Below the pieces are notes generated by a model. That model saw nothing but the letters and a program-made list of their open reading frames with translations. It had not been told where the DNA came from and searched no databases. Below are positions 14,460 to 35,786 of a stretch of 64,000 bases of DNA, piece by piece; positions within the stretch are counted from its first letter, which is position 1; every line of letters starts with the position of its first letter. The translations under genes were made by a program, and so were the position numbers. Origin of the DNA: Plasmodiophora brassicae (lineage: Eukaryota); NCBI GenBank assembly GCA_036867785.1, contig CP145410.1:992001-1056000 (forward strand), in the 5' to 3' direction.

Positions 14460-15088
14460 GGACGGCGCAATCCCATCGACAGGCGGACTCGTCGCTGCGG
14501 CGCGGTGCCGTGCGGGCCCCCGTCCCCCGGAGGCGTCGACCCGACTGACAACTGCCGCCCGACAGGTAGGCATGTGTGCCACGACCGTCGGCGTGACCAG
14601 TGCTATGTACCTCAACGGACGAAGACGTTGTGCGCGATCAGGAGTGGCATCCTGAACCGAACCGTCCTACCGCCTGGTCGTTGGTTTTGACCACTGGGCG
14701 GCTCTCGCCCTGGATGCCGCCAGGGGTACAGAGTATACGCAGCTGGCCGGCCTCGTGTGTGGTGCATCGTGTCATCAACGCATATGTGTCCTCTGCTGGG
14801 TGTATGCAGTCAGGTCTCCTGGGGATTCTGCCACCACCGAAGAACCTGTGTCGCGACCGGGACAGGTCCAGTCATTGCGACGTTCGACGCATGAGCTTCG
14901 AAGAGCCTTCAAACGTGCTGCCCGCCGTTACCCGTCGTCGGCCGGATCTGGTTATTAAACGGGTCGACTAGTACAGGGCGCTCCGCTTGAACCGGTCGGA
15001 TTCGGGAGGCAGTTACTGGATCGCGATCTGAACCCCAGCGTCTCGTCACTCGCTGGTGGGTGGGCCGACGGCGTCATCGTCGTCGCCG

Positions 15089-16585
15089 ATGGCCACCTGG
15101 GCGCCCAAGGCCGCCGTCCAGACGCCATGCGCGCCGACCCGGACGCCACAGCGGTCGGCGTCCGCCAGGGCGCCCGCCACCGAGAACGATCACGACGGCC
15201 AGCGCTGGAGACCGGAACGTGGGCCCGGGGCGCCAGCGCCCTTCACCGTTGCCGGAACCCGACCGTGTCGCTTCATCCCGAACCGGTCGTCGGCCGATTC
15301 GCCCTGGCAGGACCATTGCGTCCGCAAGCTGTTCGACAACGACGACGACGGCGACGCGAGCAGCCCCAGTCTTCAGTCGCCGTCGCGTCCCACGTTTCGA
15401 CAGTACCTGCTGGGCGCCCTGTTCGACAACGAGGACGCGCCCCGATCGAACAAGATCCTTCGGTTCCGACGGGAGGCCATAGGAGCGTCGTCGTCGACTC
15501 GTACGGCGCTTCGCGACGTGTTCGACCGGAACCGGGACGGGCACGATGACCCGTTGCGCGCCAGGGCGGCGTCGCACGGCGGGCGTCGACACATCAGCTC
15601 GACGCCCGAGAGGATCCTGGACTCGCCCGACCTCATCGACGACTACTACCTGAACCTGTTGCACTGGGGCGCGACGAACTCGGTCGCCATCGCCCTGTCC
15701 AACGCCGTCTACGTGTGGCAGGCGACGACGCAAACGACATCGCTGCTGACGAGGACGCCCGGCGATGTCACCGTCTCATCGCTGCGCTGGGACGACGAAG
15801 GCACCCGCCTGGCGATCGGCACCAGCCAACGCGAGGTCGAGCTGTGGGACGTCGATCATCAGCGATGCGTCCGGCGGATGGACGACCATCTCGACCGGGT
15901 GTCGGTACTCGCCTGGCGCCCTGGGTCGAGGAACGTCCTGACCAGCGCTGGGCGCGACGCCGTCATCGTCAACCGCGACGTTCGTGTCGGGCGCCCGTCG
16001 GTGGAGCGCTGCCAAGGGCACACGCAGGAGGTCTGCGGCCTGCAATGGAACCAGGACGGCACACAGCTGGCGTCGGGCGGCAACGACAACCTGGCGCTGA
16101 TCTGGGACGCCAAGGCGATGTCGCGGCCGAGGCTGGTGCTGAACCAGCACCAGGCGGCGGTCAAGGCGCTCGCCTGGTGCCCGTTCGAGCCCAGGCTGCT
16201 GGCCACCGGGGGCGGCACGGCCGATCGTTGCATTCGCCTGTGGAACGGCACGACGGGGGCGTGTGCCAGCACGGTCGACGCCGGCAGCCAGGTCTGCGGC
16301 CTGGTCTGGTCGTCGTACGAGCGCGAGTTGCTGTCGGCGCACGGCTTCTCGAAGAACCAGCTGACGATCTGGCGGTACCCGACCATGCAGCGTGCCGCCG
16401 ACCTGGTCGGGCACACGTCCCGCGTCCTGCACCTGTCCATGTCGCCCGACGGGTCCACGGTCTGCTCGGCGTCGGCCGACGAGACGCTCCGGTTCTGGAA
16501 GGTGTTCCGCGCCCCGGCCAGGAAGTTTGGCGACGCAGCGGCCGCCCGTTCGCCCGATGCCCTGCGCACGCTCAGCATTCGATGA
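15089..16585 (+). CDS. CDC20: APC/C activator CDC20/Fizzy (WD40)
   Basis: C-box-like CRFIPNR, KILR motif, RILDSPDLIDDYYLNLLHW, HTQEVCGLQW, HQAAVKALAWCP and the C-terminal IR tail. Confidence 0.93.
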   Translation: MATWAPKAAVQTPCAPTRTPQRSASARAPATENDHDGQRWRPERGPGAPAPFTVAGTRPCRFIPNRSSADSPWQDHCVRKLFDNDDDGDASSPSLQSPSRPTFRQYLLGALFDNEDAPRSNKILRFRREAIGASSSTRTALRDVFDRNRDGHDDPLRARAASHGGRRHISSTPERILDSPDLIDDYYLNLLHWGATNSVAIALSNAVYVWQATTQTTSLLTRTPGDVTVSSLRWDDEGTRLAIGTSQREVELWDVDHQRCVRRMDDHLDRVSVLAWRPGSRNVLTSAGRDAVIVNRDVRVGRPSVERCQGHTQEVCGLQWNQDGTQLASGGNDNLALIWDAKAMSRPRLVLNQHQAAVKALAWCPFEPRLLATGGGTADRCIRLWNGTTGACASTVDAGSQVCGLVWSSYERELLSAHGFSKNQLTIWRYPTMQRAADLVGHTSRVLHLSMSPDGSTVCSASADETLRFWKVFRAPARKFGDAAAARSPDALRTLSIR

Positions 16586-16688: not shown

Positions 16689-19600
16689 ATGGAGGAAGGC
16701 GAGGTCGTGCCAACATCGCTGGGCAGGTCCCCGGTCACATTATCGCCCGTGTACCAGGCGGTGAGCCTGGCCGACCGGAAGCTGACGTCGGTCGGCGCCC
16801 TGAGCGCGTACCCGGACCTACAACACGTCGATGTGTCCGGCAACCAGCTGGAATCCCTGGCCGACCTGACGCCGCTGTCGCAGATGCGTCGCCTGAACGC
16901 AGCCCGGAACCGCCTGTCGGTCTTCCCCGACTTTCGCCTTCCAGTCGCCGTCGACGACGATGCAGACGACGACGCCGACGTGGACGACTACCCGCGGTTG
17001 CTGCTGGACGTCAACGTCGCCGGCAACCAGATCCGGTCGTTCAACCTGCAGCAGCTGTCCTGGTTCCGGTACCTGACCCGGCTGGACGTCAGCGGGAACC
17101 AATTGCAATCGTTATCGGCGTTACGCGCCCTGCTCCGGCTGACCTACCTGAACGCGTCGCAGAACGCCATCGGCGACGTTGATGGCATCGGCCACCTGCC
17201 TCTCGTCGAGCTGAACGTCAGCGCCAACCGTATCGCGACGTTGGGCGGCGCCGGCCTGGCCATCAGCACGCTTCGGTATGTCGACCTGTGCGGCAACGTT
17301 CTGGACAGCCTGTCGGGGATCGCTGGGCACCGACACGTTGCCGTCGTGCACGCGCGCGACAACCGCATCAAGGCGCTGGCCGACCTGACCGACCTGATGG
17401 ACCTGGACCTTCTGAGGGACCTGGACCTACGCGGCAACCCGATCGGCGCGACGCCCGGCTACAAGGACGATGTCCTGTTCGCGTTGCCGCGACTCGAGAA
17501 GCTCGATGGGGACCCGGTCACGCCTGACAGCATATTACGGACCGAGGTGCTTCATGGCGTTCACGCCCACGTCCTGGAAGGCATCGAGGCGCAAGACGGC
17601 GAGGGGCCCGGCGACGACGAAGCCGGCGCGTTCTGGACGCATTGTGCCGGGCAACTCGTCATGCTGCCGTGGGAAGCGTTCCTTTCCGCGTCCCGATCCC
17701 GTCCAGCAACAGCGGTATCGCTGTCGGGCATCGGGGCGGGCGTATTCGGCCTGGCGGCGATCGCCAGCGCGCTGGACGAGAACCCGACGATTCGGGACGT
17801 GCACGTCGACGGCGCGATCTCGTCCCGACGATGGTCCTGGCGCCCTGCCTACTCCATGCGGGCGCTGCTGGCGGGTGCCCATCGGTTACGAACGCTCTCC
17901 ATGTGCGACTGCGACCTTGGCCGGGTCGAATCGCACGCCCTAGCCGAGTTCCTCGCCTCGTCGTCCTGTTTGCAGTCGTTGCTCGTCGCCGGGAACCATC
18001 TCGCTGACAACCGGACGCAGGCGGTACCGTCCGGCGCCATCGTGGACGTGGAAGCGTGCCCAGGGCTGCGCGCCCTGCTGGAGGCGGTTGCACGTTCGCC
18101 CGCGCTGACAACGCTGGACCTGTCCAGGAATCGGATCGTGAGCCGCGAGGCGGCTGTCGCGCTGTCGACGCTGATAAGCGAGGAACGCAGCCCAGACCTG
18201 GCGCTGAACCTGTCGGGCAACGAGCTGTCCCCGATGGGCGCACGCGCGCTCGTGACGGCGATTCGTGAGGCGCCCGCCCTGGCCAGCATCGACCTGTCCA
18301 GGTGCGGGATCGGTGCGGATCGCATCACGGTCCAGTTCCTGGGGCAGAGTATCGCCCTCAACGCGACTCGCCTGCAATCGGTGTCTCTGTCTGGCAGCCG
18401 GAGCCTCTCTGGCGACCTGACGACAACCCCGTTCGGCAGCGGTTCCCGTCTCCAGCGTATTGCCCTAGACGATTGCTCCCTGGCGACCGATGGCGTGACG
18501 GCAGTGGGCGCCTGGCTGTCCCAGGCGCCGTCGCTCACGCAGGTCGACGTGTCTGGGAATGTGGACGCCGACGTCAGCGTCTTCGTCGAACGGCTTGCCA
18601 CCGCCAAGACGTCGCTCGTCGACGTGAACGTCAGCGGGTGCCGAATGTCGTCACCAAAGGCGTACGGGGTCCTTCTGTCGAGGAACGCGGCGATCACGCG
18701 CTCTTTGCTGGCGACACCATCAGGGACCGTAACGATCGACCTGATCCCGTCCCAGGTCACCGACGTGGACGTATCCGGGATGGCGGGCGTTGATCGTGAT
18801 GTGCTGGTGGCGATCGGGTCCCGACGGAGCGTATCGTTGGCTGCCTGTGGCCTGCCAGGTGAGGTCCTGGCCCAGGCGATGTCGTTGCCGGTGACGCGAT
18901 TGCATCTGGGCGGGCGTCAGTCCGGGTGGAGCGAGATCAGCGCCCACCTGGACGTATCGTCGGCGTTGTCCCACGTTCGCCTGTTGGACCTGTCCCAGGC
19001 GGTCCTGCTGAACGCGGGGACCAAGGCGTTAGCAGCGATCCTGTCCGGTGGCAACGCTCGCGTACAGCACCTGTGCTTGGATCGATGCCGACTGGGTGAT
19101 GATGACGCCGTCCGGGACCTGCTCCTGGCCCTGCCGTCGGCACCTGTCGAGACGCTGGTCCTGTCGTCATGCAACCTCGGCGAGAACAACATTGACGACC
19201 TGGTCGAAGCGATACCGGCGGCAGGGGCGTTAGCGGTCGTGGACCTGGCCGGGAACCTGGTGGACGCGCAATCGTTGCTGGCGCTGGCCGGTCTCCTGGA
19301 GCGGAACCCGCCTGGCCTTCGTCGGTTGCGCCTACCGCGCCTGGCCTGCTACCGCCTGCCAGATCAGGAGGCGCAGGTGGCAACCTTGGACAAGGCAGCG
19401 GAGCAGATCGTCGATCTGTTCGAGGGGGCGCTCAGGAAGAACTCGTTCCTGAGCGAGCTGGACGCGAGCGAGATCCTCCCCGCGCATCATGCGATGCCGT
19501 TGCCGCTGAGGACCCGCATCGAACGCGCCATCCAGGATCATAACTCGACGGGCAGTAGGCTGTCGAGGTTGACGCTGGCGTCGATCGGGAGGGCAGCAAC

Positions 19601-28324: not shown

Positions 28325-31300
28325 TCACGCGTGCTTCGTCAGCGTGCGGATCGCGGCAAACAGGGCGTCCTCTGGGAAGGTCTCCGACGACGGGGCACTG
28401 GAACGCCCGGCGATGTCGACGGTATACCGCGCGACGCTATCGGCGCCAGTGCGCTTTGCCGTTCGAAGCAGGACGATGCCGCGCGTGTCGTGCGTGACAG
28501 ATTTGAGAATCGACTGCAACGGCGCAATCTGCTCGAGAGAAAAGACGGGCATTGCACGTAGTGATAGCGGCGGTTTCTGCCCCGCGTCTAACGCTCGTTG
28601 CTGACACGCAACGTCAGTGCAAACCGGGGGGAGAGATTACGGCGTTGTTCACCTTCAGGGGGTTAATGAGCTCAACGCGAGCAATTTCTAAGCGAAGCTG
28701 GAGCGCCTCCGATACCAGGTGATGCCCTTCGAAAACAAGAACGTCCGTAATGAGGAACCTGTCGATCTTGTCTTGCGCGTCAACATCACACACAAGGTGG
28801 CCGCACGCTATCGTCTGGTCTACAAACCCGCCCTTCTTGCGACGAGGAAACTCCAGTTCCTGTACTCTGATAGGGGCGGACGACCGATCTGTACGAATTC
28901 GTTCGCGATTAGATGGCATTTCCGATAATCGAGAGGTAGCATTACCTAAAGGGAAAATGAAAGATCCTTCCGCCAGGATGAACAGAAACGATAACGGTGC
29001 TGCTGGCAGCCATGTCATGCAGTAGGACGATGCAGATATAACCGACAGGTCTGACTCGCGCAGCGCCGAACCTTGCAAACGCTGAGCGACCGTGTCGAAT
29101 GGAGCATTCATCAAGTTGAATGCTGTCGAAAACTCATGAGAGGCGAAGGGCATCAGGCAATCCAGGCAACGCACCTATTTCCTCAAGACGATCTGCCATG
29201 GCAGGGCATTTCACCATATACGAACGTGATACGTTCGGAGAGGGCGACTCCCCAGACGAGACAGAAGATGGGGTGGGTATCATTGGCGAACTGCTGGCTG
29301 GCGACATCTCCACAGGGGTTGTCGCCTCGGCTTGTCGGGGGCGCTTCCCGCGCACGCTACCAGAGCGCTCATCGCCTGGATGAAGGTAGTGCAGTACGGC
29401 CGCATCAGTGGTACCGCGCCCGTGGACGGGATTGTTTCCATGATGCGACGTCGGAATAGAGGCACCGCGGGTCCCATCGACATACTCGTCATGGATGAGC
29501 CTTGACGTCGGCGGCAACGGCTTCACGTTGAAGTCCGCCAAGAACTGATGAGCGACCTGGACCAATTGACACGGTTGTCAAACGCTTGCATCGTACTGCA
29601 AACGAGAGCTAGTCGGTACCTTCCAGCGGGCTCCTTGAAAGTCGTCCCTTTCCTGTTGGGACATCTTGTGGAAATGTGCGACGTTTGCGTCGATGGCCTC
29701 GATCTGGCCGTGACCAAACAAATCTCTCAGGCCACATCAAGAGCAGGACCGGACGCGCTTCGTACCTGGAACTTTTGGAAGTACAAAGCAGCGGACACTG
29801 CTTGATCAACGAAATCACTGGGGATGTGTTCATAATCCACAATGGCCAGGTCAACAGGGAACGAGCTCGGATCCGACACGAAGTGACAGAGCCGGTCCAG
29901 AAGTGTCGCTGGAGCCCCTCGGTAATCGCGCGCGACAACATATCTGGAGAGACTTGATCAGGCATTATTCGGCCCAGTCTTGCAGTACGTCTTACAGTTC
30001 ACCATTAGCAGGCCGCGATGTCATCGGTTTTACGACGTCAACGCTCCCGAAAAGTGCGGAAATGAGATAGACCAGAGATATCGACTGCGATTCAAGTAGA
30101 GAGAAAACTTTGAAGATGAGGGTGCCTCCAAGGTTTAAGCATCCCAGTGCGCAGACGACTTCCGCGTAGATCAGCGGAAGTGACACTGTTTCCTGAAGCG
30201 CAGATGTGAGCACAGAGAAGTACGACTTTTGATACACGCACGGAGACCTCCTCGTTTGGCTGGGCGATACTGTCCAGACTGCCATCGGCTGTGACAATAT
30301 CAACGAGGCTCTCTTCATTCGCGCCGACTCTTCTCCATATATCACGAATATTATTGATGTCCATCATTTGACCAGTATCATCGGCACCAAACAGCCAGTG
30401 TTGCCTGAGCACCCACGTTAAGCCCTGGCGTAATCAGTGCCAATTCGTGCTGAACATGCCTGGTCTTTTTGATGAACTTATCATCACGAACCATCCACAC
30501 GTTCTCGTTGGCATCATGATATGGATTGAGCGATGATGCGTACCAGTTGAAGACCACATCGGGAAATTGTGTCCGCACGTAGTGATTCAGTGCACAGACA
30601 AACGCGCCTGGTGCCTCACATAGATGAAGAGATCGGATCTGTCCACGGCGGACAGCAGTAGACGGAATGGAATCGGGGAACTGGGCAACAATCTCGAACA
30701 ACTTTGTCCAGGCATTCGTTCCCATTTCGATATGAGCCGCCTGCCGCAACTGGCGTACAACTAATCCGGAAGGATTTAGTGCAGCGGTATGTTGCGACCA
30801 GCTATCCCGGCCAAACTATTATCAGGTGCAAGAAGATAAGTTCGACTGACATAACAGAACAGACAATTGTGACCTGACCTTGGCAACCAGAGGATCGAGC
30901 TGATTCTTGGTGGCACACAAGTCTGATTTAGCTTGATCAAGTTCGTCCATATGCCGAGACTTGACGCTCATGATCCAACTTGGATCGAGGGCGGCACCCA
31001 CGCTCGATGGCAGAGGTACCCGTTTCTTAAACAGACTTCCGTCGCTGTCAAATATGTGCATGGCCTTCTCAAGTGATGGCAACAGACCAGAATCTGGAGA
31101 GCACAGTATCAGTGATATATATCGCTTGAGACGTGTAACACAATTGACTAAGGTATTACCGCGAGGTCGTTTGGGAATCCCAGAAAGTGAAACAGACGCG
31201 GATTGAAGAGACTTCGGGAACGACAACGTTTCGTACGGGTTTGACGATATGGTCTCCCCATGGACGTCGGGACGTGGAGCAGTCGTCTCAGCAGTAACGG

Positions 31301-31676
31301 CAATCTTCATCCGCTTTGGACGATGCTTTGGCGGGTGAGCACTCGCTTTCGTTTTCTGATTCTGTTTGGGCAACCCCTGTAACTATGACGAAATAGTGCT
31401 CCGAGCATCATTGCATGCCTGGGACTGAAGCGCTTTTGCAACCTCCTCAATGGACGGCTTCGATGCGGTCGTGGAGACAGGCGCGACCCTTACAACAGGC
31501 TGCGGAGACGCCTGCAACGTCTGTCAGCGCTAGTACTTGCAGATCGGGACGTGGCGTACCGCATTAGCAGGTTGTCGTGCGCGCGCTCGAGCATATGCGG
31601 CGAGCAGGGCAACCTCCTCGACCCATAGGTCAGGGGCTGCAGTCCCACCCGCTACGCCCTTCTTGGCGTCCGTCAT
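28325..31676 (-). CDS. CMTR2: Cap2 mRNA 2'-O-methyltransferase CMTR2/FTSJD1-like with C-terminal degenerate guanylyltransferase-like domain (multi-exon)
   Basis: TNAWTKLFEI, SLHLCEAPGAFVCALNHY, SSLNPYHDAN, VTADGS, GGTLIFKVF and KPMTSRPANGE. C-terminal QTIACGHLVCD...RFLITDVLVFEG. The 5' exons and the fusion are inferred by eye. Confidence 0.8.
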
Positions 31677-32272
31677 GCGAACACCACGCACTATCTGTCG
31701 GGTCTTCGCCGCGCGCATCGATGACGGCCGACGGGGCGTGCTCCGGTGCATGACTGGCCGACGAACATTGCAGAGTACCTGTATGAGACGGCGGCAAGGA
31801 CGGAAATACGAATGAGGCCGTCTTGACTCGAGAGGGGACGGAAGGGGGATTCAACCGTTGCCGTACGCCAAGGCAGGGGGAGAGCTGTTGCTGACGCTGA
31901 CAACCGCAGTAGTAGTATGGGGTATTGTTGTTGCACAAACCCATGGGCAATGGGTTGCAATCTGTCCTGGTACGATGGCGCGCGAAGCCAACGTCTTGTT
32001 CTTCATATGCATATCTGTTGGCCCCTGGTTCACCGCACGATCGCGTGTCCCCGATGTCTTGCGCATTGTTACATTGCGAAACTGCCATGTGCTCATCGCG
32101 TGCGTTAAGAATTCACTCTGGTAGCGGTGATCGGCGTAACCCTGTTGTGCTTACGCCAGCATAGTGATGAGCGCTCGGCATCACAGCTATAATGACAGTC
32201 AATTCTTCTGGTTCCGCATTGTAATTGTTGGCAGGTTGAAGCGCGTTTGAACAGGGTCGTGCAGTTCCATCG

Positions 32273-32370
32273 ACTAGACACACTTGCTATCCGACAGATT
32301 CAGAGCGTCAAGTGCCCTTTACAACGGTTACTTGGGACTCTTAATCTGTTGGAAAGCGAGTGTGCTTAGT
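32273..32370 (+). ncRNA. Candidate pre-miRNA-like hairpin (98 nt)
   Basis: 45-nt arms pair without bulges around an 8-nt loop: 39 of 45 positions paired, 5 of them G-U. It is intergenic and expression is unknown. Confidence 0.4.
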
Positions 32371-32630
32371 ACATAATGTACAGTTGGAAATCAAACGGCT
32401 CCAACCTGGGCCTGGTAGAGAATTACTTCTATTGTTCTTACAATCGGCGATCGCCTTTCTGACCGCAGCCATGGCGTCGTCTGTGCTGCGTCCCAGGGAC
32501 GGCTCATCAGCACGGGAGGCCAGCAATGTATAACATGGGCCTATGACAGAGAAACAGTGGGGACTGCACGTGACGTCAAGGTCGTCGGCATGCCTGCGAG
32601 ATGGTCCCTTGGTGCGTTTCGAAAATCGAA

Positions 32631-33627
32631 ATGGCTGTTGCGCCAAAAACCGAGGTGGAGTACGACTGCGATCCGCCGATCCCGCCGCGAAAAGGGCCAC
32701 GCCGTCCTCTGTCATCCACAGCAGCTTCAGCGTGACACTGTGCGGCTGTCATGACGAGAGTATGGGACGTATACAGGAGCGCGATGCTGACACAGCGGAA
32801 GTTGCGATACCGACCTCATGCAGCGCCGTCTCTCGCCGGCCGGGAGATGCCGCTGGATGTGTTGCTGGGATCGAGCGACACCGCGATCACCAACTATATT
32901 GACAAACATCGGGAGGAGGACGAGCGAATGAGATCCATAAAGGAAGCCAGACGCCTTGCCGAAATGGAAAGAAAGGTAAGCCGTTCGAGTTATCCCGAGC
33001 GAGTCTATCGGCCGACTCAAAAACGCAAACGGCTTTCGCAGACTAAGTTGAAGAGGACGCCAGGCGTGCTCTTGCATACCCAGATTCTCTGCAATACGGG
33101 CACCAGGTCAAGCACCTGTATACATACTTATGATGCTATGGGGGTCGCCTAAGTGCTGCTGGATCTTCAGGCGCCACCTGTTACCGGAAACGAAAGACGA
33201 TTGCAACATGATCGTCCTGCGTACCAGGAACAGGAACGACTACGGAATCGTCGTTGAAGTCCTCGACAAGTTGATTCTTCACGCTGCGTTGCAACTGACC
33301 GGTTCTCCTTTCGGGCCAGAACGCGACGAAGACATGTCGTACAAAGCGTTTCTCCGCTGGCTAGATGCTTCGGCTTGCCTGGTCAGCGGCGTCACTAATC
33401 GCAACCGGACTGGACAGGCCGCCTGGTGTCAACTAACCCAGGAGCAGGCCAACGAGATCGCGTTTCGCAAATGGCGCATTCCCCAGTGGGCGTCTAGCAT
33501 TGACGCTGCGAGGTACAGGGGCCCAGTCGCCAAAGTCCTCTGGCTGAGAGGCACCAACCGCAACGAAGCCCACATGTTCAACGCGCCCATCGACGTATTC
33601 GGCCGTATCAAAGTACACGTCCCGTAA
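32631..33627 (+). CDS. Hypothetical protein (multi-exon)
   Basis: MAVAPKTEVEY exon, then a GT-AG intron at about 32732-32776 joining ORF 32751.., then ORF 33130..33627. No family recognised. Confidence 0.55.
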
Positions 33628-33677
33628 CGCCGTCTGCTTGCGCCAAACCGAGCCTCGTTGTATTCATAGCGGCCGCA

Positions 33678-35786
33678 ATGTCCGTCGTCGTCGACGACGT
33701 TGCCTTGTGCAGCTGGCGCTCACAACACCTCGTCAGGCTCTCTGTCGCCGAGGGATCCGGCCTCTCCATATCGATCGACGATGGGCCCGGTCGCTGTCTG
33801 CCCATATCAGAGATACGCCTGGTCCCAATCGGTATCATCACTGCCAGGAGGTGCATGGACACACAGACGGGTCTCTCGTCTCTCGTCGCAGTGCTACGAT
33901 GTTCCGCTCCCGATGCCACCCACCACATTGTGGTCGTGTCCGTTCCCGACCCGCTCCAAGACGACGTCGTAGCCCATGTCCAGCATGCGTTCCCCGATGC
34001 CGATAAAGCGGCCAGGTTGACGCTCGCCGATGGCCCATTGCTGCTGGCAGCCACCGGATCCACCCTCGTCTTCATCCAGCGTTCCGACCATGGCGAATAT
34101 GCCGCTCTGCCAGTTTCGTTACCGTCCCCGGCGACGACCACTGTCCCGACCGGCAACGGGGTTGAAGTGGCCACCATGTGTGGCCGGTTCGTCAACGTTT
34201 CGGGCACGCCTCTCGCGCTGAACTCATCGACGTCGATACCGAGCGCGTTCACTGCACCTGCGACGTGTATGGCGCACCATGGCCCGTCGGACACGTTTGT
34301 TGTCGGCAGCGGCGACGCTGTCGTCAGTCTCGTACGCCGGGGCATAATCGCCCACCGTCGTCCTAGTCTCCCATCGGCTCCATCTGCCATTCACACGACG
34401 TTGCACCATTGCGTTGTATCGTTATCCTGCCGATCTGCCGTTGTCGTTTGCTCGATTGCCGACCTGGCTCTTGTGCGGATCATCGAGAACGCGGCCTGGG
34501 CGATCCCAGTCAGTGAGTCGCTGCTAGCGACATCGTCTGGCCAGCGAGTTCAGCTAGGCGGTGCAGAGTGCGGCGACGCGCCGACCCGTCTCGGTGCTGT
34601 CGCGATTGCGCTTCGTGATCGGGTCACTGCTGGGTGTGCCGAGCTTGAACGCGTCGAGGGCATTCACCAGTACAAGGAGCACCTTCTGGCTCACATGGAG
34701 CGACTGCTCAGCGGCGATGGCGCCTCCGTGTTTCCATCCAGTGACGTGTTCGGCATGAGCGTTCCTCGACTTGTACCCGTCCTGGAACGAAGCCCAGAGA
34801 AGGCACCCGAATCCGCTACTGCTGGCGTCAAAGGGGTCAGCATTCCCCTGTTCCCTGTATCGTCCGTTCGCACTGCTCGCGATGGGGCCGACTTTCATTG
34901 CGAAGTCGACGTTCGCATCAAGGATCGCTCCGATGAAGTTGCTGACGTGTGCCTGATTGTCCTCGGGGACGATGGCATCGTTGTCAGCTCTGTATCCCCC
35001 ACCGCTGACACGTCGCGCTCTGGCGATACGCTGTCATTGCATGCAGTGGTTCGCTTGGACGACCTGCCTGATTACGTAGGATCCACGAAGGCAAGCCTGG
35101 CGGTGTCTTGGCGTGGTTGTCAAGCGCCACTGTTCATCGATACGGTGTCGATCGATCGATGGGCGACGCCGTCAGATATCAGACATCGTCACTCTCGAAG
35201 CAAGTCGCCTGTTGCGGCTCCACAATATGGCGTTGTCGCCAGTTTCTGTTTGAAGTGCCCCGACGTGTCCCAGGTCCTGTCACCGCCCGTCGGAATGACA
35301 CGGTTCGAAGATGCCCGGACGGTTGGTCGACATCCGAAGTTGGTCGGGTCGGAGCAAGCGTCATGGCGATCAATGGACGACTTGGTGGAAATGCTGGTCA
35401 CCTGCTGTGGTGCCGATGCCCAGGTCGTGGTACAAGGGCACTCCAGGGCGCGTGTTGCCGATTGCACGAACGCGTTGCTGCAAGCAGTCGATGGCCCTGT
35501 CGACCTGTCGCCCGACTGGACGATCCTGCTACCGCTTGTCGGGCAGTTTGTGGCGGCGCTGGGTGACGAGATTAGTATCGCCGCCGATTTGGTCACCGGT
35601 GAGGTGCAGACGCTGATGGAGCAAGGCGGCATCCACGCGTCCAGTGCCGACATTCGCAAGGCGATCACGAGATACACGCTTCGCTCCAGGAAGCTCGCCG
35701 ACGCGCAAATAATGACCGATAACCTCGCTGGGCGCATCCTGACGTACTTCACAGAAGCGCAGCGGGACGAGAGATTGCCTGTATAA
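33678..35786 (+). CDS. FANCB-like protein (beta-rich N-terminus, central coiled coil, beta-sandwich, C-terminal helix)
   Basis: 702-aa intronless ORF. ALRDRVTAGCAELERVEGIHQYKEHLL and the terminal KLADAQIMTDNLAGRI resemble the FANCB coiled coil and C-terminus (recalled). Confidence 0.5.
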   Translation: MSVVVDDVALCSWRSQHLVRLSVAEGSGLSISIDDGPGRCLPISEIRLVPIGIITARRCMDTQTGLSSLVAVLRCSAPDATHHIVVVSVPDPLQDDVVAHVQHAFPDADKAARLTLADGPLLLAATGSTLVFIQRSDHGEYAALPVSLPSPATTTVPTGNGVEVATMCGRFVNVSGTPLALNSSTSIPSAFTAPATCMAHHGPSDTFVVGSGDAVVSLVRRGIIAHRRPSLPSAPSAIHTTLHHCVVSLSCRSAVVVCSIADLALVRIIENAAWAIPVSESLLATSSGQRVQLGGAECGDAPTRLGAVAIALRDRVTAGCAELERVEGIHQYKEHLLAHMERLLSGDGASVFPSSDVFGMSVPRLVPVLERSPEKAPESATAGVKGVSIPLFPVSSVRTARDGADFHCEVDVRIKDRSDEVADVCLIVLGDDGIVVSSVSPTADTSRSGDTLSLHAVVRLDDLPDYVGSTKASLAVSWRGCQAPLFIDTVSIDRWATPSDIRHRHSRSKSPVAAPQYGVVASFCLKCPDVSQVLSPPVGMTRFEDARTVGRHPKLVGSEQASWRSMDDLVEMLVTCCGADAQVVVQGHSRARVADCTNALLQAVDGPVDLSPDWTILLPLVGQFVAALGDEISIAADLVTGEVQTLMEQGGIHASSADIRKAITRYTLRSRKLADAQIMTDNLAGRILTYFTEAQRDERLPV

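Follow-up and report, generated by a model that had tools for sequence, protein, structure and literature searches.

The question raised by this locus is whether a hairpin of 98 nt lying between two divergent genes of the plant parasite Plasmodiophora brassicae, at 32273..32370 on the + strand of the 64-kb stretch of DNA analysed here (the window), is a precursor of a functional small RNA or a palindrome that folds well for other reasons. A script count bore out the geometry given for it in the first-pass annotation, in that 45-nt 5′ (32273-32317) and 3′ (32326-32370) arms on the + strand flank an 8-nt loop (32318-32325) and pair at 39 of their 45 positions, with 34 Watson-Crick and five G-U pairs (arm positions 5, 13, 21, 36 and 42), six symmetric non-pairs and no bulges. 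Positions 6 and 34 among the non-pairs can form G-U pairs on the − strand only, and the true mismatches are at positions 17, 29, 35 and 43. The two arms match in reverse complement at 34 of 45 positions (~75–76%, or 24% divergence) without a single indel, and have no exact 9-mer in common, which is why an inverted-repeat search with a seed of 7 found the hairpin and one with a seed of 9 missed it. No larger inverted repeat around the hairpin emerged from the seed-7 search. A 13-nt palindrome with 6-nt arms (32369-32381) lies directly 3′ of it.

With RNAfold, the hairpin reached −52.3 kcal/mol on the + strand (z −8.86) and −47.2 kcal/mol on the − strand (z −7.59), none of 200 shuffled sequences being as good in either case, and it was kept in both the minimum-energy and the centroid folds of its 751-nt context. 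In a survey of the entire 64 kb that folded 12,780 windows of 100 nt from the two strands (mean −28.8 kcal/mol, sd 7.0), it was one of the 19 best non-overlapping folds and the sole one with a G+C content below 0.66, its own being 0.47 and that of the other 18, which lie mostly in GC-rich coding sequence, 0.66–0.80. The strongest raw folds (−52 to −58 kcal/mol per 100 nt) occur at 15081-16400 and 17661-18861, within the coding parts of the CDC20-like and LRR genes, where the G+C content is 0.67–0.80, and are probably composition-driven.

The 3′ arm of the hairpin holds a published small RNA. Hairpin positions 59-79 (32331..32351, + strand) are identical to Pb-miR003, a 21-nt RNA with a 5′-C listed in Table S8 of Zhang et al. 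(2026, Adv Sci, September 2026; PMC13547706), at 21 of 21 bases with no mismatch, and this is the one match in the 64 kb, where the chance expectation is 0.00. By sequence identity, the locus thus belongs to the published P. brassicae miRNA set, and as a miRNA locus already described in 2026 it is known. The match supports the proposal in the first-pass annotation of a candidate small-RNA precursor in a plant-parasitic protist, and it falls on the + strand, which that annotation had favoured. The published entry gives a 659-nt ‘precursor location’ (Ctg_1:1026183-1026841), whereas the hairpin delimited here spans 98 nt. Pb-miR003, being 21 nt long with a 5′-cytidine, is typical of the published set: according to PMC13547706, 90% of the mapped P. 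brassicae small RNAs are 21 nt, with a strong 5′-C bias, and are phased at 21 nt, the two strands being offset by 2 nt.

The same source, whose public small-RNA libraries come from five life stages and are joined by RIP-seq of PbAGO1 and PbAGO2, annotates 234 P. brassicae miRNAs with ShortStack 3.8.2, using a foldsize of 1000 and a strand_cutoff of 0.5, a setting that we regard as lenient. For three of the 234 (miR002, miR041 and miR045), validation came from northern blots and reporter assays; Pb-miR003 lies outside these three and is a ShortStack annotation only. There is no mention of it in the main text of PMC13547706, whose Figure 2G shows a palindromic miRNA locus, and the text, tables and legends examined give no structure, star strand, read count, validation or target for it. 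Since its sequence occurs only once in the supplements consulted, Pb-miR003 has no row in the target list (Table S9). Full-text literature searches with the 21-mer, in RNA or DNA letters, and with the name ‘Pb-miR003’ gave no match, the sequence being found solely in the PMC13547706 supplement, and none of five star-strand, basal-duplex and antisense-strand motifs was present in the supplementary files examined. The term ‘cross-kingdom’, under which the first-pass annotation had also considered this RNA, appears in the consulted parts of the paper only in the title of a reference. Outside that paper, the 21-mer had no exact match in metagenome contigs, and Rfam 15 gave just two sub-threshold hits at chance level, the better being MIR1508 with 19.4 bits against a gathering threshold of 70 (E 1.7).

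What could cut such a hairpin is suggested by the small-RNA machinery described for the organism. According to PMC13547706, P. brassicae (genome 25.2 Mb) has two slicer-type AGOs, PbAGO1 and PbAGO2, no Dicer and no RdRP, together with PbDRL, a Drosha-like RNase III with two RNase III domains, a dsRBD and a Bump helix. When PbDRL cleaves dsRNA, the products are mainly 21 nt long, and silencing the enzyme reduces Pb-miR002. Hence the designation of the hairpin as a Dicer substrate in the first-pass annotation has to be dropped, that study finding just the Drosha-like enzyme, and of the Dicer and AGO genes that the annotation had named for checking, the AGOs are present (two) and Dicer was not found. 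PbDRL is proposed here as the cutter because P. brassicae has no Dicer.

We then considered how Pb-miR003 is placed along the stem. Its 5′ end is separated from the loop-side end of the stem by 5 bp, and 19 bp lie between its 3′ end and the stem base. A predicted miRNA* at hairpin positions 22-42 (32294..32314, + strand), placed so as to leave 2-nt 3′ overhangs, would pair with it over 19 positions with 15 Watson-Crick pairs, one G-U pair, three mismatches and no bulge. Register arithmetic places the next 21-nt unit of the 3′ arm at 32352..32372 (+ strand), where it would form a basal duplex with 32273-32293 and where it ends exactly 2 nt past the last base pair of the stem. The stem thus has a length of 2×21+3 bp, with Pb-miR003 in 21-nt register with its base, a geometry that is new here and consistent with the genome-wide phasing at 21 nt and offset of 2 nt described in PMC13547706. 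Given this register, two successive cuts 21 nt apart may be made in the stem. The plant criteria of Axtell and Meyers (2018) call for a miRNA and a miRNA* within a fold-back stem of less than 300 nt, for at most five mismatched positions with no large asymmetric bulge, for a sequenced star whose 3′ end overhangs by 2 nt, for a locus whose reads fall mostly on the pair, and for confirmation by northern blot or in replicated libraries together with a validated target. On the structural side of these criteria, both the 98-nt hairpin and the predicted duplex, with its three mismatches, single G-U pair and lack of bulges, lie within the limits.

Taken together, we consider it probable that the hairpin is the fold-back precursor of Pb-miR003, diced by PbDRL, with the 5′-C strand loaded into an AGO. 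A plus-strand transcript through the divergent intergenic region would fold into the 45-bp stem, PbDRL would cut this stem in 21-nt steps, and the loop-proximal duplex would deliver its 5′-C strand (32331-32351) to PbAGO1 or PbAGO2, the hairpin itself sitting inside a wider cluster of 21-nt phased small RNAs. Of this scheme, the structure, the exact identity with a published small RNA and the transcription of the region (below) are observed; PMC13547706 is the source for the 21-nt class of RNAs, for both AGOs and for what PbDRL does. Four elements are predicted, namely the miRNA*, the cutting in two register steps, the kind of primary transcript made from the + strand, and a target.

The wider cluster calls for caution. 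PHAS21-5, a phasiRNA-like locus with 21-nt phasing in Table S6 of the same paper (Ctg_1:1026179-1027114, 936 nt, p 2.3e-11), contains the whole Pb-miR003 interval (1026183-1026841; these are Ctg_1 coordinates and not window numbering), and the overlap of a 659-nt precursor with a 936-nt phased locus implies that small RNAs arise well outside the hairpin. A 659-nt cluster within a 936-nt phased locus, together with the lenient strand cut-off, counts against precise processing. These same data suit an alternative in which the locus produces phased natural-antisense siRNAs from dsRNA formed by overlapping divergent transcripts, the hairpin being incidental and Pb-miR003 merely the most abundant siRNA. 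That P. brassicae has no RdRP and that the source of dsRNA for its siRNAs is left open in PMC13547706 are further points in its favour, as are the strand_cutoff of 0.5 used there and the lack of a long inverted repeat around the hairpin that could explain a 936-nt cluster. Under this alternative, however, the location of Pb-miR003 in the hairpin that, adjusted for composition, is the strongest of the 64 kb and its exact 21-nt register with the stem base would both be coincidences. Moreover, ShortStack is expected to call MIRNA loci only where a qualifying hairpin holds the major RNA, which would also count against it. The alternative, which depends on transcripts from both strands, is on balance held to be unlikely.

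Transcription across the hairpin was assessed from public sequencing runs. Among 24 runs listed, 20, from eight studies, contain at least half of the words of 31400-33400, and RNA contigs for the region 30500-34500 were obtained from four of six runs guessed to be RNA (none is recorded as such), one per study. These contigs carry no information on small RNAs, strand, transcript ends or expression level and are no proof of single-molecule continuity. The same four skips within the minus-strand methyltransferase gene and two GT..AG skips in the plus-strand gene recurred in 4/4 runs, which indicates that the contigs derive from spliced RNA. The hairpin region was covered by intron-skipping contigs in all four runs and the whole hairpin in three of them (X15 rec 4, 32155-32973; X16 rec 6, 31559-32408; X18 rec 11, 31707-32478), whose contigs cross it without breaks at its borders. 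No base differed from the window in any of the four runs, so that these isolates are uninformative on selection.

The genes of the window with Pfam families are eukaryotic in character and encode a CDC20/Fizzy WD40 protein, MyTH4 and LRR proteins, an FtsJ-type methyltransferase and a capping-enzyme-like domain. The last two lie in a single spliced ORF on the − strand (28614..31751; PF01728 followed by PF01331), an architecture presumably resembling that of the cap 2′-O-methyltransferase CMTR1. Its four introns found in every run (30816-30878, 31094-31159, 31362-31418 and 31511-31558) measure 48–66 nt, the skipped segments having CT..AC ends except for one with CT..GC, which makes 31362-31418 a GC..AG intron. 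Its start codon is at 31751 or, more likely, at 31676, the latter being favoured because of where the deep contigs end. Contigs from X15 and X20 break at 31672-31692, close to where transcription of the methyltransferase gene is likely to have its main start. On the other side, a plus-strand gene with GT..AG introns and no Pfam family (32431..35786, + strand) has contig starts at 32431 or 32450 and likely an ATG near 32751. Two alternative 57-nt GT..AG introns of this gene, one confined to X20 (33613-33669) and the other to X16 (33680-33736), fall at the beginning of a 702-aa ORF, likewise with no Pfam family; a search for relatives of this ORF in metagenome contigs gave 64 pattern matches, none of which was confirmed. 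The hairpin is ~520–620 nt upstream of the start codon of the minus-strand gene and 60–160 nt upstream of the contig starts of the plus-strand gene, positions that place it in a divergent intergenic region.

Contig pieces from X15, X16, X18 and X20 define a transcribed stretch at 31707..32479, assigned to the − strand, that covers the hairpin. The sole strand-informative marks on the hairpin-crossing transcripts are two optional introns with CT..AC ends, both pointing to the − strand and each seen in 1/4 runs, which indicates that some of these transcripts are minus-strand. One is a 60-nt GT..AG intron (32346..32405, − strand), evident in X20 rec 16, where 31672-32345 is joined to 32406 onward (joint 32345>32406, depth 6.1, side 74); it removes the outer 25 nt of one hairpin arm, and its acceptor lies inside the sequence complementary to Pb-miR003. 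A 6-nt inverted repeat is found at the start and end of this intron. The other is a 73-nt GT..AG intron (32082..32154, − strand; joint 32081>32155) upstream of the methyltransferase start codon, for which the X15 evidence is marginal (depth 5.2, side 30). The stretch 31707-32479 may belong to the minus-strand gene as a long 5′ leader or be a separate transcript upstream of that gene, two possibilities that contigs carrying no strand, ends or single-molecule continuity do not distinguish. Some contigs run on at their ends into sequence that does not match the window: X16 and X18 contigs ahead of 32431, and X18 and X20 contigs beyond 32479, carry a median of 255 letters absent from the 64-kb window, and the X18 contig 31707-32478 has 26 foreign letters before 31707. 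The breakpoints at 32431 and 32479 enclose a 49-nt segment and could reflect a short repeat common to another locus or an assembly chimera; the loose-end consensus strings at 31707, 32431 and 32479 are absent from the window at up to three mismatches.

For the antisense-siRNA alternative, these data mean that spliced minus-strand transcripts cross the hairpin and that the plus-gene contigs beginning at 32431 or 32450 overlap them up to 32479. Each of the minus-strand introns comes from one run in four, and the plus strand is implied by Pb-miR003 and by the 32431/32450 starts of contigs that are themselves strandless. A second use of the same transcripts would be as mRNA leaders in which the hairpin acts in cis, the small RNA being a side product: it could block scanning, or its cleavage by an RNase III could destabilise either a long-leader methyltransferase mRNA or an isoform of the plus-strand gene initiated upstream. 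X16 rec 6 is indeed continuous from 31559-32408 into the spliced methyltransferase body, X15 rec 4 joins 32155-32973 to the next exon of the plus-strand gene, and the fold is strong on both strands. Yet contigs are not proof of single transcripts, the hairpin is 520–620 nt upstream of the minus-gene ATG, and in three of the four runs a deep gene-body contig is separate from a lower-depth contig carrying the hairpin. We therefore give a leader role only a very slim chance of being the main explanation.

The transcripts also bear on whether the hairpin is simply a decaying DNA palindrome or what is left of a small fold-back transposon, without any selected function as RNA and with small RNAs as a by-product of transcription. 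The first-pass annotation had taken the tolerance of G-U pairs as a sign of selection on RNA structure, an argument that did not survive counting: the seven transition-type differences between the arms split 5:2 between the + and − strands, and five or more of seven is expected with P = 29/128 = 0.23. The G-U asymmetry is therefore not significant as evidence of selection and does not separate the readings. With arms 76% identical and differing by seven transitions and four transversions, this split is compatible with neutral decay; further, no predicted target is listed for Pb-miR003 in the published tables consulted, and searches of metagenome contigs with the 21-mer and the 702-aa ORF gave no relative. 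Decay of a palindrome would nevertheless have to be reconciled with a register kept without an indel despite 24% divergence of the arms, with RNA contigs of three runs that traverse the hairpin unbroken at its borders, and with a defined 21-nt product in the published tables examined. Nor does the window bear traces of a mobile element: with blastn-short, neither the hairpin nor the 700 nt around it had a further copy in the 64 kb, and no direct repeat of 2–10 nt was found at its borders, shifting these by up to 3 nt yielding just the 3-nt CAT. A MITE origin, which the first-pass annotation had put forward as the alternative to be checked, is thus without support within the 64 kb, where there is one copy and no target-site duplication, and we regard the palindrome explanation as a whole as highly unlikely.

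Returning to the hairpin as precursor of Pb-miR003, we looked for targets within the window. Target prediction, also suggested in the first-pass annotation, yielded a perfect complement, which is the antisense strand of the locus alone; with that cis-antisense strand and the hairpin's own 5′ arm excluded, the best other sites scored 4.5 and 5 mismatch units and are not convincing. The minus-strand transcript, if real, would be a cis target of Pb-miR003, a site whose final 6 nt are lost when the 32346-32405 intron is spliced out. These observations can be assembled into a more elaborate reading, in which the hairpin is a two-step ruler stem for a Dicer-less pathway, its register extends into the flanks and its product acts by cis slicing. 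Here, the Drosha-like RNase III would engage the stem base and cut twice at 21-nt steps, giving the duplexes 32273-32293/32352-32372 and 32294-32314/32331-32351; the register would run on into flanking sense/antisense dsRNA to produce the 936-nt phased locus; and the product would act in cis on the cap-methyltransferase-like gene by slicing its minus-strand, long-leader transcript, one splice form of which would drop part of the target site. As a joint proposition, this combination appears unlikely.

Comparison with known systems sets the hairpin apart in several respects. Plant MIRNA fold-backs of the miR159/319 type undergo sequential 21-nt cuts and are processed by DCL1, a Dicer. The P. brassicae hairpin resembles these in its long, near-bulge-free stem, in having more than one 21-nt register and in its 21-nt products, but there is no Dicer here and, as seen from the MIR1508 score, no sequence relation. 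In animals, Drosha cuts ~11 bp above the basal junction of a ~35-bp stem and Dicer makes the second cut. The likeness to animal pri-miRNAs lies in the enzyme, that proposed for P. brassicae in PMC13547706 being Drosha-like; the differences are the 45-bp stem, a mature RNA that ends 19 bp above the base and the lack of Dicer. With MITEs and fold-back transposons, it shares the form of a ~100-bp near-palindromic inverted repeat in an intergenic position, and it differs from them in being present as one copy in 64 kb with no target-site duplication and arms 24% diverged. Finally, plant phasiRNA loci need a miRNA trigger and an RNA-dependent RNA polymerase. In P. brassicae, where the published account finds no RdRP, the dsRNA of PHAS21-5 must instead come from a fold-back or from a sense/antisense pair.

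Thus, a reading from sequence only can pick out a true small-RNA locus, even though in this case no new kind of element is added. What is of residual interest are the 2×21+3 geometry, the overlap with the phased cluster and the antisense spliced transcripts, all absent from the sections of PMC13547706 examined. Before 2026, there was essentially no description of RNAi in Rhizaria, and the 21-nt RNAs of P. brassicae are made without Dicer. The hairpin described here, being short, bulge-free and with a defined product, offers a clean natural substrate on which to map the way in which a Drosha-like enzyme measures off 21 nt. Moreover, with a phased cluster and antisense transcription at the same place, the locus could reveal the source of siRNA precursors in an organism without RdRP.
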